A stretch of DNA of 64,000 nucleotides from Candidatus Omnitrophota bacterium. GTDB lineage: Bacteria > Omnitrophota > Gorgyraeia > Gygaellales > Profunditerraquicolaceae. A model generated the notes under the pieces. It was not told the DNA's origin. It ran no database searches and was given only the letters and a program-made list of their open reading frames with translations. The position numbers and the translations under genes were made by a program. Where the stretch lies: assembly GCA_020058085.1 (NCBI GenBank), contig JAGVER010000005.1, positions 2,743 to 66,742 of the forward strand, written 5' to 3'. Within the stretch, counting starts at the first letter, position 1. Each line of letters begins with the position of its first letter. Below are positions 30,935-48,336 of the stretch, in pieces.

Positions 30935-30948
30935 TAATCAATAGATTA

Positions 30949-31149
30949 ATCTTCAGGGCAGGGTGGAATTCCCGACCGGCGGTTGCGCAGAAGCGCACAC
31001 CGACGCTTCCTTTAGCGTTGGGTGAAAAGTCCGCGAGCTCTTAACGAAAGTTAGAGCATGAACCGGTGAGACTCCGGTACCGATGGTAGCGCACAGGCGC
31101 ATACTAACCTATCCTATTAGGTTGGGTAACAGTCCAGATGAAAGAAGAT
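30949..31149 (+). ncRNA. FMN riboswitch (RFN element) with expanded peripheral stems
   Basis: P1 is atcttc/gaagat. Conserved cores are cagggcagggtggaattcccgaccggcgg, aaaagtccgcgagc, accggtgagactccggtaccgatgg and aacagtccagatgaaagaaga. It lies upstream of ribBA. Confidence 0.92.
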
Positions 31150-31160
31150 GTTTACACTTA

Positions 31161-31299: not shown

Positions 31300-32511
31300 A
31301 TGCTGAATACTATTCCAGAAATACTTGAGGATTTAAAAAACGGGAAGATGGTCATTGTGGTTGATGATGAAAGCCGCGAGAACGAAGGTGACCTGGTTGT
31401 GGCTGCGTCTTTTACCAAACCAGAAGACATAAATTTCATGGCCAAATTTGGCCGTGGGCTAATTTGTGTCCCTATGGAAGAATCAAGACTTGATTCTCTA
31501 GGTCTAGGACCAATGTTAAAGGAGCAGTATCTTCCTATTCAGAAAGATCCTTTTTCTACTGCTTGGGTTATCTCGGTTGATGCGGCTAGAGGAGTTACTA
31601 CCGGGATATCTGCTTATGACCGTTCGCGTACAATTGAAGTTTTGATCGATCCTAAAACAAGGCCTGAAGATTTAGTTAAGCCAGGGCATGCATTTCCTTT
31701 AAGGGCGCGTCAAGGAGGTGTTTTAGTTCGTGCAGGCCATACTGAAGCAACTCTGGATCTTATGCGTTTAAGCGGATTATATCCGGCAGGAGTTATCTGT
31801 GAGATTATGAATGATGACGGAAGTATGAGTCGGATGCCGCAGCTCTTAGAATTCTCTAAGAAACATAATTTGAAGATCTGTTCTATCGCTAATCTTATTG
31901 AATACCGGCGTAAATCTGAAAGATTAATTGAGAAGTTAGCGGAGACTATTTTACCCACAGAATTCGGAGAATTTAAACTTATCCTTTACAAGGACCTTAC
32001 GAATAATAAGGTTCATACTGCTTTAGTTATGGGACAATTGAACGAGGATCCGGTTTTAGTGCGCGTGCATTCAGAGTGTTTGACTGGAGATGTCTTTGGT
32101 TCATTGCGTTGTGACTGCGGCCGGCAGTTAGCTAAGGCAATGCAGATTATATCTTCTGAAGGTAGGGGAGTTATACTTTATATGAATCAAGAGGGTAGGG
32201 GGATTGGCCTTGTGGATAAGATCAAGGCTTATCATTTGCAGGATAAAGGCATGGATACAGTTGAGGCTAATGAAGCATTGGGGCATAAGCCTGATTTAAG
32301 AGATTATGGAATAGGCGCGCAGATTCTGGTAGATTTAGGAATAAAAAATATAAGGTTGTTTACCAATAATCCGCGTAAGATTATCGGCTTGGAGGGTTAT
32401 GGCCTGCGTGTTGTTGAGCGGGTTTCTTTAGAGATTGGGCATAATCCGGCGAATTACAAATATCTAAAAACCAAAAAGGAGAAGTTGGGGCATAATTTAA
32501 AGATAGAATAA
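31300..32511 (+). CDS. ribBA: Bifunctional 3,4-dihydroxy-2-butanone-4-phosphate synthase / GTP cyclohydrolase II
   Basis: [12 protein letters not shown] (RibB part) and [18 protein letters not shown] (RibA part). Confidence 0.95.
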
Positions 32512-32528
32512 ATAATAGGAGGTGTGAA

Positions 32529-32996
32529 ATGAGTAAAGTAATTGAAGGTAATTTGATCGCCAAGGGGAGAAAGTTTAGTATTGTTGCTTCGCGTTTCAAT
32601 GATTTTATGACTAAGGAACTGGTTTCTGGTTGCGAGGACACTTTAGTCAGGCATGGTGTTTTGGATCAGGATCTAACTATAGCTTGGGTTCCGGGCGCTT
32701 TTGAGATCCCTACTGTTGCCCAGAAGTTGGCTAAAACTAAAGCATATGACGCAGTAATTTGTTTAGGTACGATTATACGCGGAGCAACCCCGCATTTTGA
32801 TTATATTGCTTCTGAAGTAGTCAAGGGTATTGCCAAAGTCTCTTCTGATACGGGGGTTCCGGTAATCTTTGGGGTAATCACCGCTGATACAATTGAACAG
32901 GCGATAGAGCGTTCAGGAACTAAGGATGGTAATAAGGGCCGCGATGCTGCTCTTTCAGCGATCGAGATGGTAAATATTTTAGAGAAGATAAAATAA
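32529..32996 (+). CDS. ribH: 6,7-dimethyl-8-ribityllumazine synthase
   Basis: 155 aa. VPGAFEIP and TPHFDYI motifs. Confidence 0.95.
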
Positions 32997-33412
32997 TGCG
33001 TAAGCGTACAGTTTCCCGCGAATTTGCCTTACAAATTCTTTATCAGTTGGATATTACCCGTGATACCCCTGAGGCTGCTTTGGAAAACTTTTGGTCTGCG
33101 CGCAGCCAAGAGGTGATTGAAGTCGAGTTAAAGGAATTTACTTCCAAACTGGTCAAGGGCGTTGCCTCTTATATAGATGAGATCGATAAAAAGATATCCA
33201 AATATGCCGCTAATTGGCAGCTTAAGCGCATGGCTGTTGTAGATAGGAATATTATGCGCATGGGCTGTTTTGAGATTCTCTATTGCGAGGATATTCCCCC
33301 TAAGGTCTCAATTAACGAGGCAGTTGACCTTGCCAAGAAATTCTCAGGTATAGAGGCAGGCAAATTTGTTAACGCAATTCTGGATAAGGTAAAGATAGAA
33401 AAGGAAAAGTGA
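32996..33412 (+). CDS. nusB: Transcription antitermination factor NusB
   Basis: RKRTVSREFALQILYQLD N-terminus and conserved ribH-nusB synteny. Confidence 0.9.
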   Translation: MRKRTVSREFALQILYQLDITRDTPEAALENFWSARSQEVIEVELKEFTSKLVKGVASYIDEIDKKISKYAANWQLKRMAVVDRNIMRMGCFEILYCEDIPPKVSINEAVDLAKKFSGIEAGKFVNAILDKVKIEKEK

Positions 33413-34233
33413 GATTCGCAGATTTGCACCTACACACCATTTTTTCCGACGGAACATATACTCCTGTTGAGTTGGTATCAAAGGCATTAGATGCCGGTTT
33501 ATCCTGTGTTGCCTTAACTGATCATGATACCGTAGATGCCCTAGAGGAGACGATTAGCATAGGTAATGATCGCGGGCTTGAGGTATTACCTGGCATAGAA
33601 CTTAGCGCTGAATATGAATCTCAAGAAGTGCATGTATTAGGTTATCTTGTTGATTACAGATCGCCTCCATTCTTAAAACAGCTAGAGATCTTAAAAGAAA
33701 ATCGCGTTAAGCGCGTATACAAAATAGTTGAAAAATTAAATAAGCTTGGCATAGGTTTAAATGCACAAGATGTATTTAATATTTCTGAAGGCGCGACTCC
33801 CGGCAGGTTGCATATTGCCCGGGCTTTGGTTAAATCTGGTTTTGTAAAATCAATTTTTGAGGTTTTCAATAGATATATTGGGGACAGAGGTCCGGCTTAT
33901 AGTTTAGGTTTTCGTTTTAGCCCTAAAGAGGCGATAAAATTTATCCGTGATGCAGGAGGGGTACCGGTTTTAGCGCATCCTTACGTCCTTCATAATGATG
34001 AGCTGATCTTGGAATTTATAAGATTAGGGCTTATGGGCCTAGAGGCTTATTACCCGGAACATTCTCAAGGAGAAGTAAACTTTTATTTGAATCTAGCTAA
34101 GGAACATAATTTGTTAGTTACCGGAGGTTCAGATTGCCATGGTAAGGCTAAACCTGAAGTGCGCATTGGTTCATTAAAGATACCTTATGAATTAGTAGAA
34201 AAATTAAAAGAGGCGAAGGAAGGTTTAAAATGA
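33409..34233 (+). CDS. PHP-domain metal-dependent phosphoesterase (TrpH/YciV-like)
   Basis: FADLHLHTIFSDGTYTP, ALTDHDT, AHP and GGSDCHG motifs. Confidence 0.8.
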   Translation: MRFADLHLHTIFSDGTYTPVELVSKALDAGLSCVALTDHDTVDALEETISIGNDRGLEVLPGIELSAEYESQEVHVLGYLVDYRSPPFLKQLEILKENRVKRVYKIVEKLNKLGIGLNAQDVFNISEGATPGRLHIARALVKSGFVKSIFEVFNRYIGDRGPAYSLGFRFSPKEAIKFIRDAGGVPVLAHPYVLHNDELILEFIRLGLMGLEAYYPEHSQGEVNFYLNLAKEHNLLVTGGSDCHGKAKPEVRIGSLKIPYELVEKLKEAKEGLK

Positions 34234-35321
34234 AGAAGTCCCACGAATATTATATGAATTTGGCGATGAAGCTTGCTTTAAGGGCTAAGGGGAAGACATA
34301 TCCTAATCCTATGGTCGGCGCTTTGGTTGTTAAGGGCGACAGGATTTTAGGCAGAGGTTTTCATGCAAAAGCCGGTTTGCCTCACGCGGAGATTATAGCC
34401 TTAGATGAAGCTGGCAAGAATTCTAAGGGAGCAACTCTTTATGTAACTTTGGAACCTTGCGTGCATTTTGGCAGGACTGCGCCTTGCGTGGATAGAATTA
34501 TTAGCAGCCGGATTAAGGAAGTCATTGTAGGTATGATTGATCCTAATCCAATAAATAACGGTAAAGGTATCGCTATCTTAAAGCAGCGTGGGATTAAGGT
34601 TAGCGTAGGGATTTTAGAGGGTAAATTGAAGCGGATGAACGAAGTTTTTATAAAGTATATCTCTAAAAGGATGCCATTTATTACGGTAAAAGTTGCGGAA
34701 TCTCTAGATGGCCGTATTGCCACTAGGACAGGGGATTCTAAATGGATTACCTCGGATAAATCACGAGGTTTTGCGCATCGCATTCGGCAGGATTTTGACG
34801 CAATTATGGTTGGTGTGAATACGGTATTAAGGGATAATCCTAAATTAGACGCGTGGTTTACTAAGAAGCAGCCAGTTAAGATAATTGTAGATAGTCAATT
34901 AAGCACGCCTCAAAGCTCGAATGTTTTTTCTCATGGCGCAGCAGTAATAATTGTAACATTACCTACCAAATCAGGACAGGAGACTGAGAATAGGAAGATT
35001 TTGGTTGATAAAGCTAAGGTTTTAGAAGTTAAAGAAAAAGATGGGCAGATTAATTTAAAAGATATGTTTAAAAAGTTATTTCAGATGGGCATAAGAAGCA
35101 TATTGGTTGAAGGCGGGGGGACATTAAACGGATCTTTGTTTGACGACGGGCTTGTAGATAAGGTAATGTTTTTTATAAGCCCTAGAATCATCGGCGGGAA
35201 AGAAGCGATTGGTTCAGTGATGGGGCAGGGGATAGCGCGTGTTGAACGCTCTGTCAGGATAAAAGATTTGAGGTTAAGGCGCTTCGGCGAAGATATTTTA
35301 GTGGAAGGTTACGTAAAATAA
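34230..35321 (+). CDS. ribD: Bifunctional diaminohydroxyphosphoribosylaminopyrimidine deaminase / 5-amino-6-(5-phosphoribosylamino)uracil reductase
   Basis: HAEIIAL and LEPCVHFGRTAPC (deaminase), plus a C-terminal reductase domain. Confidence 0.93.
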   Translation: MKKSHEYYMNLAMKLALRAKGKTYPNPMVGALVVKGDRILGRGFHAKAGLPHAEIIALDEAGKNSKGATLYVTLEPCVHFGRTAPCVDRIISSRIKEVIVGMIDPNPINNGKGIAILKQRGIKVSVGILEGKLKRMNEVFIKYISKRMPFITVKVAESLDGRIATRTGDSKWITSDKSRGFAHRIRQDFDAIMVGVNTVLRDNPKLDAWFTKKQPVKIIVDSQLSTPQSSNVFSHGAAVIIVTLPTKSGQETENRKILVDKAKVLEVKEKDGQINLKDMFKKLFQMGIRSILVEGGGTLNGSLFDDGLVDKVMFFISPRIIGGKEAIGSVMGQGIARVERSVRIKDLRLRRFGEDILVEGYVK

Positions 35322-35322
35322 T

Positions 35323-35898
35323 ATGTTTACCGGTATAATTGAAGAATTAGGGATAGTTAAGAGAATATCGCGTTCTGGCAATTTTATTCTTCTTGAGATC
35401 TCTGCTCTCAAGGTTACCGAGGCTGTTAAGATAGGGGATAGCATATCTGTGAATGGAGTTTGTCTTACAGTAGTTAAGTCTGGAAATAGTTCAATTAGTT
35501 TTGAGGTAATGGCTGAGACATTTAAAATAACTAACTTAGGTGTTTTAAGGATTAATGAAAAGGTTAACCTTGAAAGCAGCCTAAAAGTAGGGGATAGGCT
35601 ATCCGGACATTTTGTCCTAGGCCATATTGATTGTTTAGGGATAATCCGTAAGAAAGGGATAGTTTCAGGAAACCTAGCGTTCGAAATAACTATACCAGAC
35701 GGGTTTACTAAATATTGCCTGCCTAAAGGTTCAGTTGCTGTCGATGGAATTAGCCTGACTATTCAAGAGAAAAAGTTCGGTTCTTTTAGTGTCTACATTA
35801 TTCCGCATACACTTAAGAATACTACTTTAAGTTTTAAGGGCCCATCTGATAAAGTTAATATTGAATTTGATATGCTCGCCAAAAAAGCTGTATCATGA
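35323..35898 (+). CDS. ribE: Riboflavin synthase alpha chain
   Basis: MFTGIIEELG start and duplicated lumazine-binding barrels (GDSISVNGVCLTV / GSVAVDGISLTI). Confidence 0.93.
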   Translation: MFTGIIEELGIVKRISRSGNFILLEISALKVTEAVKIGDSISVNGVCLTVVKSGNSSISFEVMAETFKITNLGVLRINEKVNLESSLKVGDRLSGHFVLGHIDCLGIIRKKGIVSGNLAFEITIPDGFTKYCLPKGSVAVDGISLTIQEKKFGSFSVYIIPHTLKNTTLSFKGPSDKVNIEFDMLAKKAVS

Positions 35899-46660: not shown

Positions 46661-47158
46661 TTAGGGTGTTTCTTGTTCGGCCTTATTTGTTATCTTCTGA
46701 ATTATCGGATTATCTTTAAGCCGTATCAATTTCTCATTATTCATCAAGCTAGCGGTATTTCCGGATTTTACCGCATTAATAATTTCAGGGTCATTAAGGA
46801 CCGCCTGAAACTGGGGATCATTTTGCAGTGACGTAACCATTCCCATGGTTTCTTTGTCGCCGAGTATTTTATTTTTCATAGCTTCTATCTGATCTGAAGA
46901 AGGTCCATAGCCTCGGGGTGTCGTAACTCCTGGATTTTTCTCGGTGTCAGCGAGAATGATCTGCTTAATACGCGATTCTTCTATTTGTAACACGCCCATC
47001 TCTTGAGAATTAATGGTATATTTCCCGTTATTTATTCCAGAGACTTCACCGATAATAACACTTCCATCAACAAGCTCAACCTTGCTTAACTTATTTGCTA
47101 GCGCTAGAGAGATAAAAATATTAAAGAATACAATCAAAGTTAATATAGTCTTCTTCAT
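46661..47158 (-). CDS. Hypothetical secreted protein with C-terminal DP/STI1-like repeats
   Basis: Signal peptide MKKTILTLIVFFNIFISLALA. The C-terminus is LQNDPQFQAVLNDPEIINAVKSGNTASLMNNEKLIRLKDNPIIQKI. Confidence 0.6.
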   Translation of the reverse strand: MKKTILTLIVFFNIFISLALANKLSKVELVDGSVIIGEVSGINNGKYTINSQEMGVLQIEESRIKQIILADTEKNPGVTTPRGYGPSSDQIEAMKNKILGDKETMGMVTSLQNDPQFQAVLNDPEIINAVKSGNTASLMNNEKLIRLKDNPIIQKITNKAEQETP

Positions 47159-47271: not shown

Positions 47272-48222
47272 ATGAAAATCATTTACGGAATAAATAAGAT
47301 TGAAGAATTTAAGAAGCCTGTTTTGGCGATGGGGGTCTTTGATGGAGTCCATCGCGGGCATAAGAAGATACTTAAGGCGGCTGTGGAGAAAGCGCGTAAG
47401 ATTAGAGGCACGAGCATTGCCTTGACTTTCTGGCCGCATCCGCAGAAAGAAGGGAACCTTTATTCTTTGGAGCATAGATTACGGCTTATCGCCGAGCTAG
47501 GGATTGATCTCTGCATTGTGGTTAATTTTAGCCGGAATTTTGCCGAGATTAAGGCGCAGGATTTTATAAAAGATATCTTAGTTGATAAAATATGCGCAGA
47601 ATATATTTATGTGGGCAATGATTTTAAGTTTGGCAAGAATGCGGAAGGCGACCTTGTCCTTTTAGATAATTTAGGCAGGATTTATGGTTTTAAAGCAAAG
47701 GGCCTTAAGATAATTAAGTCCGGAAGTAAACCTGTAAGTAGTACGTTAATCCGTAGCCTTGTCAAAAAAGGCGAGATAAGAAAAGCGCAAGGGCTCTTGC
47801 ACCGGCCGGTAAGTATTCTTGGGACTGTAATAAGGGGAACAACTTTGGGCAGGATATTAGGTTTTCCGACGGCAAATATAGATCCGCATCATGAAGTAAT
47901 CCCGGCAACGGGAATCTATGCTGTAAAAGTTGTTCTTGGAAAAAATAAATTAAAAGGCGTTTGTTACATTGGCATAAGGCCAACCATTAAAACAAGGGGA
48001 CGGTTCTATTTTTCTAAAAATAGAACCGTCCCCATTGTTTTAAAAAATAACAAGGTGAATGTCGAAGTTTACATATTTAATTTTAAGAAAAATATTTACG
48101 GAAAATATCTGGAGATCCAATTTGTGAAAAAGATCCGTTCGGACAGAAAATTTCCTTCTTTAACGCTCTTAGCCAATCAGATCAAAAAAGACGTAGCCTC
48201 TGCAAAGAAAATCCTCTCCTAA
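47272..48222 (+). CDS. ribF: Bifunctional riboflavin kinase / FMN adenylyltransferase
   Basis: GVFDGVHRGH, FWPHP, GFPTANI and IRSDRKFPSL motifs. Confidence 0.92.
   Translation: MKIIYGINKIEEFKKPVLAMGVFDGVHRGHKKILKAAVEKARKIRGTSIALTFWPHPQKEGNLYSLEHRLRLIAELGIDLCIVVNFSRNFAEIKAQDFIKDILVDKICAEYIYVGNDFKFGKNAEGDLVLLDNLGRIYGFKAKGLKIIKSGSKPVSSTLIRSLVKKGEIRKAQGLLHRPVSILGTVIRGTTLGRILGFPTANIDPHHEVIPATGIYAVKVVLGKNKLKGVCYIGIRPTIKTRGRFYFSKNRTVPIVLKNNKVNVEVYIFNFKKNIYGKYLEIQFVKKIRSDRKFPSLTLLANQIKKDVASAKKILS
47989..48041. repeat. Perfect 18-bp-arm palindrome (extended to ~25 bp) lying in-frame inside ribF
   Basis: ggggacggttctattttt (47996-48013), ct, aaaaatagaaccgtcccc (48016-48033). It is flanked by aaaacaa/ttgtttt. 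It encodes ...KTRGRFYFSKNRTVPIVLK..., which sits between conserved RibF blocks (GIRPT ... VEVYIFNF). Confidence 0.9.
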
Positions 48223-48307: not shown

Positions 48308-48336
48308 TTGACAAAGGGGAGGATTATATCTATACT
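48308..48336 (+). promoter_or_regulatory. Near-consensus sigma70 promoter of the dcw cluster (Pmra)
   Basis: TTGACA (48308-13), 17-nt spacer, TATACT (48331-36). Confidence 0.7.

Follow-up and report, generated by a model that had tools for sequence, protein, structure and literature searches.

A palindrome read in-frame within ribF of an Omnitrophota bacterium, a probable minimal copy of the terminal inverted repeats of a Y1 transposon

The ribF gene located within the 64-kb window (i.e. the whole stretch of 64,000 nucleotides that was analyzed) carries a palindromic insertion, which maintains the reading frame and whose two arms are identical to the 18-nt terminal inverted repeat of a dispersed family. 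We consider it likely that the palindrome consists of the two terminal inverted repeats of a transposon, joined back to back as a minimal non-autonomous copy, and that it is tolerated in RibF. The features of the locus are as follows:

47272-48222, + strand: ribF, encoding a bifunctional riboflavin kinase / FMN adenylyltransferase of 316 aa, the host gene of the insertion (open reading frame and Pfam)
47987-48043, strand not applicable: the whole palindromic element, 57 nt, with extended arms, a 2-nt centre and one bulged A
47996-48013, + strand: left core arm GGGGACGGTTCTATTTTT, identical to the 18-nt terminal inverted repeat of the family (position weight matrix of 340 copies)
48016-48033, − strand: right core arm, the exact reverse complement of the left arm (sequence match)
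47986-48033, + strand: net gain of 48 nt / 16 codons, residues 239-254, IKTRGRFYFSKNRTVP (protein alignments and codon-level comparison with loci L001, L244 and L245)
48064-48066, + strand: codon of Glu265, invariant in 119 RibFs, 11 residues past the insert

The ribF product was identified by its Pfam domains (FAD_syn, 7.7e-40; Flavokinase, 4e-36), and its sequence matches solved FAD synthetases along the whole length. RibF is an enzyme essential in most bacteria. When the whole window was searched with Rfam at gathering thresholds, an FMN riboswitch (30945-31153, + strand; 85 bits, gathering score 66) and one tRNA were detected, and no more. The genes ribBA, ribH, nusB, a PHP-domain gene, ribD and ribE are located downstream of the riboswitch (31300-35898); the product of RibF feeds back on this riboflavin operon, 17 kb upstream of ribF. 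The presence of the riboswitch and the rib operon indicates that the cell makes and senses FMN, and thus presumably needs a working RibF. Upstream of ribF there is a 165-aa ORF (46661-47158, − strand) without a Pfam match, whose position is conserved in relatives, and mraZ is preceded by a strong sigma-70-like site (TTGACA-17-TATACT, 48308-48336). The GC skew is positive in all 2-kb bins of the window.

A sequence-only reading of this DNA had pointed to an 18-bp perfect inverted repeat with a 2-nt centre inside the riboflavin kinase domain, and we were able to locate both arms exactly, on either side of the centre 'CT' (48014-48015). The palindrome does extend beyond these perfect 18+18-nt arms, as had been proposed, and its extent is slightly larger than the 47989-48041 given there (47987-48043); one bulged A (48034) lets the pairing continue through TTAAAACAA / TTGTTTTAA. 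It is the strongest inverted repeat across the window, and none of 100 shuffles gave two arm matches. No other copies of the arm were found in the 64-kb window, even with 3 mismatches allowed. The predicted RNA fold of the palindrome has an energy of −36.5 kcal/mol (z = −8.7), a stability equalled by 0 of 200 shuffles, and the DNA fold has −26.2 kcal/mol. In Rfam, the palindrome region produced sub-threshold miRNA-hairpin noise alone. The extended arms (TTAAAACAA-GGGGACGGTTCTATTTTTCT ... AAAAATAGAACCGTCCCC-TTGTTTTA) are also present in a copy from an Omnitrophota MAG (L209), which has the same 9-nt flanks, TTAAAACAA and TTGTTTTA, and a spacer of 16 nt.

Other identities of the palindrome were considered and rejected. 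A programmed frameshift site would require a slippery heptamer, and none is present, the stem beginning immediately. A DNA-uptake sequence does not agree with one copy per 64 kb, the cross-phylum distribution and the link of the arms to a transposase. A resemblance to a group II intron or attC was dropped, as no matching features were found.

The comparison with orthologues supports an insertion. When 5.8 billion proteins were searched, RibFs of Omnitrophota were retrieved, of which the nearest (at least 12, with 72-85% identity) are all 300 aa long, versus 316 aa here. In the alignment the nearest RibFs have a 16-residue gap, which follows the invariant RPT and comes before the I-x-x-K located ahead of the invariant Glu265. 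At the DNA level, locus L001, which is syntenic with the window over 20 kb, aligns at 83-88% identity, and so do the syntenic loci L002 and L244; in each case the BLAST alignment stops at 47966-47972 and restarts at 48043-48046. The relatives lacking the palindrome share the same ribF-mraZ gene layout. A non-palindromic segment of similar length, by which an ancestral loop would have been recognized, does not occur in the near relatives, which lack the segment. The reading frame is kept across the palindrome, and its flanks are in-frame with the orthologues. The sequence-only reading was right that residues had been added to the protein, and its figure of 18-20 is to be replaced by a net 16 (48 nt). 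Judged from these alignments, the ribF segment is a genuine in-frame insertion. The event was probably recent, because the arms are perfect and the element is absent from relatives with 83-88% DNA identity.

The placement of the net gain is ambiguous: positions 47996-48043 are equally valid, and the ancestral I-x-x-K codons may be those of either flank. The element as defined by the L209 copy measures 57 nt, versus a net gain of 48 nt, which leaves nine nucleotides unaccounted for. Possible explanations are that (i) the ancestral loop was three codons shorter, (ii) nine nucleotides were lost at insertion, or (iii) the element entered through microhomology with ATTGTTTTAAAA. Neither a target-site duplication nor a target-site signature was recognized at the ribF insertion.

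RibF was modelled with AlphaFold. A 25-sequence alignment proved too shallow (kinase domain pLDDT <50) and was replaced by one of 119 sequences, which gave a model with pLDDT 91 and pTM 0.86. The model superposes on the FAD synthetases of C. ammoniagenes (TM 0.84) and T. maritima, with TM 0.84-0.86. The sole segment below pLDDT 50 comprises residues 243-258, i.e. the insert, between strands 225-234 and 263-268; the remainder of the model is confident, and the surface position of the insert that the sequence-only reading had thought worth modelling is what the prediction gives. The loop from T238 to E265 is 9-10 residues long in 75 of the 119 Omnitrophota RibFs (range 6-35), and 26 residues long here. 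Glu265 corresponds in the alignment to Glu268, the catalytic base of C. ammoniagenes FADS (2x0k-type chains), for which the PDB includes an 'E268D mutant' entry, 3zug, and all invariant residues of RibF are retained despite the insert. According to the model, the insert is disordered; the loop that contains it, hypervariable among relatives, is solvent-exposed and joins two beta strands of the riboflavin-kinase domain. We regard the insert as a tolerated passenger without a dedicated function, probably neutral for RibF.

The same loop carries a different, G+C-rich perfect palindrome in another RibF clade of Omnitrophota, TCCCCCGACGT-T-ACGTCGGGGGA, encoding the peptide FSRQGGIPRRYVGG. The RibF loop has therefore been struck by two unrelated palindromes. 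The one of L242 contains 39 nt extra, in the form of nested 7-bp hairpins. Loose matches to the G+C-rich motif number 4 in 1.7 Mb of loci. The palindromes of this clade are located as follows:

L243, approx. 1244-1266: ribF palindrome (P0064 / P0096 proteins of L243 and L242)
L242, approx. 775-870: ribF palindrome

The search for further copies, which had been proposed together with the palindrome, revealed that the arm is dispersed through hundreds of contigs and is tied to a family of Y1 transposases. At least 120 metagenome stretches contain the exact 18-mer GGGGACGGTTCTATTTTT, and so do at least 119 from GTDB species representatives. Its hosts are mainly Omnitrophota and Aminicenantes; further copies are in DNA labelled as Planctomycetes, Deltaproteobacteria/Smithella, Nitrospirota and Clostridia (the last being MAGs). 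Matches in cultured Clostridia (L131, L220) were attributed to chance, and one in a methyltransferase (L185, 'GDGSIFIHLDW') to chance or coding; they have neither the A-rich flank nor a partner and were excluded from the family. As to a viral vector, IMG/VR gave one solo arm match. A literature search for the arm sequence found no relevant description.

Over 340 distinct oriented copies, the conserved unit consists of an A-run (−7 to −1), the 18-mer and then T/C, with nothing conserved beyond. A single arm has hardly any fold (−2 to 0 kcal/mol, z approx. 0), and the usual form is that of two arms inverted around an unrelated spacer of 2 to approx. 100 nt. An inverted partner within 150 nt was found for 86 of the 98 arms in Omnitrophota loci and for 17 of 32 in Aminicenantes, and the number of inverted pairs ranged from 104 to 144, depending on the search criteria. 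In 54 of 142 pairs complementarity extends outward by at least 5 nt, in co-varying, non-homopolymer sequence. Where an ORF lies within 300 nt on both sides, the genes flanking a pair are tandem in 53 cases, convergent in 15 and divergent in 15, and the median distance from the upstream stop codon to the pair is 17 nt. Density differs greatly between genomes: 56 arms were present in 66 kb of sampled loci of one Lac Pavin Omnitrophota MAG, compared with one element in the 64-kb window and 0 in 29 kb of its relatives.

Recurring spacers are few, and offer thin direct support for pairs moving as units. One subfamily of pairs shares the spacer TTGGCAGAGGTGACAGTCACAAAAAGCGTGACAGTCACCTTTCTC, which contains two GTGACAGTCAC palindromes and could represent protein-binding cargo:

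L004, 3900-4030: pair of the spacer subfamily
L064, 3803-3886 and 11399-11481: two pairs of the spacer subfamily
L074, 2977-3060: pair of the spacer subfamily
L122, approx. 5755: pair of the spacer subfamily

Some loci (L013, L032, L046, L049, L073, L121) contain stuttered partial arms (AAAAGGGGAC, AAAAGGGGACGGTT, AAAAGGGGATAAAAAGGGGACGGTTT) just upstream of exact arms, and others (L016, L030, L031, L046, L067) tandem arms of the same orientation, 34-57 nt apart.

The association with a transposase was observed at the level of the family. When the ORFs within 2.5 kb of arms were clustered, the top protein family was one of approx. 230 aa, with an HUH motif and a conserved Tyr region. Its members score 50-67 bits against Pfam Y1_Tnp (cut-off 23), and 68-77 bits against NCBIfam REP_Tyr_transpos (REP-associated tyrosine transposase, cut-off 80), the best NCBIfam match, versus 20-30 bits against IS200. 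In six loci (L239, L150, L197, L096, L119 and L088) the arms bracket the transposase gene, pointing inward and lying 30-80 nt from the ends of its ORF, to form units of 760-925 bp; the right arm contains the stop codon TAG in L119 and L197. The transposases of five of these loci are listed here:

L119, 395-1100: Y1 transposase
L150, 5921-6605: Y1 transposase
L197, 6653-7400: Y1 transposase
L088 and L096: further Y1 transposases

The transposases compared are approx. 42-60% identical to one another, while the arm is invariant. Approximately 100 residues follow the Y1 domain, without an HTH match in Pfam; the longer neighbours of L006 and L087 end in an HTH-like sequence. The approx. 230-aa proteins end in an AT-hook-like (K/R)GRPKK, and the arms are flanked by a conserved A/T run. 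No Y1 transposase gene was found in the 64-kb window or in the 29 kb of its relatives.

RibF is not the only protein into which the element is translated. Approximately 10% of the exact arms lie in long open frames, as do 9 of 144 pairs. Pfam domains match on either side of the element in PriA (L117, L067) and in a GH94 hydrolase (L094), and on either side of a solo arm in an O-antigen ligase (L186); elements are also present in giant Omnitrophota ORFs (L159, L140, L167, L205). The palindrome can be read through in two of its three frames, which encode GDGSIF..KIEPSP or, in RibF, RGRFYF..KNRTVP.

The PriA proteins of L117 and L067, which come from two metagenomes, are 48% identical and have the element at a homologous position, after LRKGK. 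One of these copies is an inverted pair and the other consists of two arms of the same orientation, and all of the arms are the exact 18-mer:

L117, 1809-1862: element within the PriA gene
L067, 2039-2093: element within the PriA gene

This recurrence could result from ancient retention under constraint, from re-insertion or from gene conversion. By eye, the canonical Walker A motif (GxxGSGKT) appears to be absent from its expected place past the element in these Omnitrophota PriA proteins (HDLDGEARWD in L117, GKDRMGVY in L067).

The sequence of events that we propose for ribF would start from a parent element in which the repeats bracket, as they normally do, a small Y1 transposase gene (HUH, IS200-like, RAYT/TIRYT-type). 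Judging from the analogous IS200/IS605 and REP-RAYT systems, pairing of the arms on single-stranded DNA may produce a hairpin, which would be recognized and moved in trans by a transposase encoded elsewhere in the genome, the existence of this autonomous partner being assumed. RibF would thereby have gained the disordered 16-residue loop IKTRGRFYFSKNRTVP. The insert may have survived because its 57 nt (net 48 nt) are divisible by three, because it entered a frame without a stop codon, and because the site is a hypervariable, solvent-exposed loop.

There are other ways in which the same sequence could have come to be in ribF. An element of this family may have arrived by recombination, gene conversion or template switching through microhomology, with no part played by the transposase. 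The right flank of the element, (A)TTGTTTTAA, has the same sequence as the host codons ATT GTT TTA AAA, the net gain of 48 nt is 9 nt short of the 57 nt defined by L209, and the window has no transposase nearby, all of which would fit such a route. We nevertheless find it rather unlikely: homology at the left junction is limited to 2-3 nt (ATT), loops of 6-9 residues occur, so that the ancestral one may simply have been shorter by 3 codons, and throughout the family the arms bracket a Y1 transposase, which argues for transposase-mediated spread. Another proposal is that the palindrome is an artefact of assembly or amplification (an inverted chimera or repeat-induced misjoin). The RibF protein described here (P0001) is indeed found in one assembly only (1 member, 1 contig), but on both sides of the palindrome the gene is collinear and in-frame with its orthologues, and the arms are not copies of gene sequence nearby but identical to a repeat that has the same architecture in >240 independent contigs from many studies, which makes an artefact very improbable. 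The suggestion that the segment is an ancestral RibF loop, or a palindrome made locally that resembles the repeat by chance, is hardly credible. In its favour, the loop is hypervariable and another RibF clade has a palindrome at the same position; all near relatives, however, lack the segment, both arms match the family consensus at 18/18 positions, and the 9-nt flanks are common to L209.

A different kind of alternative, raised in the sequence-only reading as an internal attenuator, concerns what the hairpin does, namely that it has been recruited as a cis-regulator of ribF, either a translation-coupled terminator/attenuator or an mRNA-stability element. On both strands, the 17-pair stem followed by ATTGTTTT fits the consensus of a terminator. 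The hairpin is also very stable, and for copies of the family between genes the median distance past a stop codon is 17 nt, as with terminators and REPs. This terminator-like palindrome sits inside the ORF, 180 nt ahead of the stop codon, and a translating ribosome is normally expected to unwind a hairpin inside a coding region, which counts against such a role. In addition, the palindrome is absent from all relatives with the same ribF-mraZ layout, the same sequence is scattered over unrelated genes and spacers, and mraZ has its own promoter-like site at 48308-48336. We therefore judge a regulatory recruitment to be improbable.

As a probable minimal copy of transposon ends, the ribF palindrome belongs to a family for which the best-fitting known description is TIRYT. 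The repeats of TIRtrons/TIRYTs have the motif GGGGWSAS in common and are dispersed singly, as dimers or in clusters (Di Nocera, De Gregorio & Rocco 2013; PMC3733652), and REPs inside genes, notably replication and repair genes, have been documented (PMC3733652). TIRYTs correspond to subclass 2.1 of TnpA_REP (Quentin et al. 2018; PMC6006769). In common with them, the family described here has long terminal inverted repeats, and not REP hairpins, on both sides of a RAYT-like Y1 HUH transposase gene; repeats scattered as singles, dimers and clusters; and copies inside genes, including a replication gene (PriA in this case). The repeat starts with GGGGACGG, which agrees with GGGGWSAS at 7 of 8 positions (G for A at position 7). 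In contrast, the hosts belong to uncultured Omnitrophota, Aminicenantes and further anaerobes that those papers do not cover, the 18-nt repeat does not vary between phyla although the transposases have only approx. 42-60% identity, the proteins of approx. 230 aa end in GRPKK and have no Pfam HTH match, and the ribF copy is reduced to two bare arms with a 2-nt centre.

The REP/REPIN-RAYT systems (Nunvar 2010; Bertels & Rainey 2011, PMC3116915) are similar in that inverted doublets form long hairpins, and in that the repeats flank an associated Y1 transposase, are mostly located just downstream of genes and are abundant in some genomes. They differ from the family studied here, whose single arm is not a hairpin and has no unpaired GTAG tag, GACG/CGTC being within the paired stem, and whose transposase scores just below the NCBIfam REP_Tyr_transpos cut-off. 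The absence of a fold in the single arm indicates that the arms are not classical REP units, and that the mode of recognition may differ from that of REP-RAYT. The distribution is also cross-phylum rather than lineage-specific, and the identity of the arms across phyla argues against their being specific to a lineage.

With the Rickettsia palindromic elements, to which the sequence-only reading had compared the ribF palindrome, the family shares the presence of palindromic repeats in-frame in presumably functional genes, to which they add a surface peptide. RPE-1 elements are approx. 100-150 bp long and restricted to Rickettsia, and no transposase is known for them. The element described here is 57 nt long, is tied to a Y1 transposase family, occurs in other hosts, and presumably has no sequence relationship to RPEs. 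The analogy thus holds for the way of working (in-frame copies in real genes), in which the element also resembles intragenic REPs, and fails for family membership. MITEs derived from DDE transposons (Correia/NEMIS, RUP, Nezha) are likewise short, non-autonomous, bounded by terminal inverted repeats and sometimes in-frame. Here, the enzyme is of the Y1 HUH and not the DDE type and no target-site duplication was recognized; the flanks of the pairs are complementary to each other, and are not the direct repeats by which DDE-type MITEs are defined.

The ribF insertion represents a palindromic mobile element read in-frame outside Rickettsia and Proteobacteria, 11 residues from the catalytic Glu. 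It does not open a new category of biology. The occurrence of filled and empty ribF alleles allows them to be compared, which makes of them a natural experiment. More generally, the element belongs to a large repeat family of Omnitrophota and Aminicenantes, which has a candidate transposase and an 18-nt end that does not vary, and for which the literature search returned no description. The family should be useful for annotation, because its inserts inflate or split gene calls, and for quality control of binning and assembly, because it acts as a repeat-induced breakpoint. It also provides a tractable substrate for studying the TIRYT-type Y1 transposases, whose mechanism is, to our knowledge, uncharacterized.

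The most interesting loose ends are the invariance of the arm across phyla and the recurrence in PriA. A broader scenario, which we put forward as a conjecture and consider unlikely as it stands, is that the arm is the recognition site of an ancient and still active Y1 transposon family, common to several phyla of uncultured anaerobes, whose hairpins recurrently yield bidirectional terminators as well as new protein loops (RGRFYF..KNRTVP / GDGSIF..KIEPSP, in RibF, PriA, GH94 and the giant Omnitrophota proteins). If this were true, the identity of the arms across phyla and the persistence of the PriA site would reflect ongoing re-insertion, gene conversion or inter-phylum exchange, and not simple vertical decay. 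Inter-phylum exchange could, in turn, be linked to the host-associated lifestyle that has been proposed for Omnitrophota.
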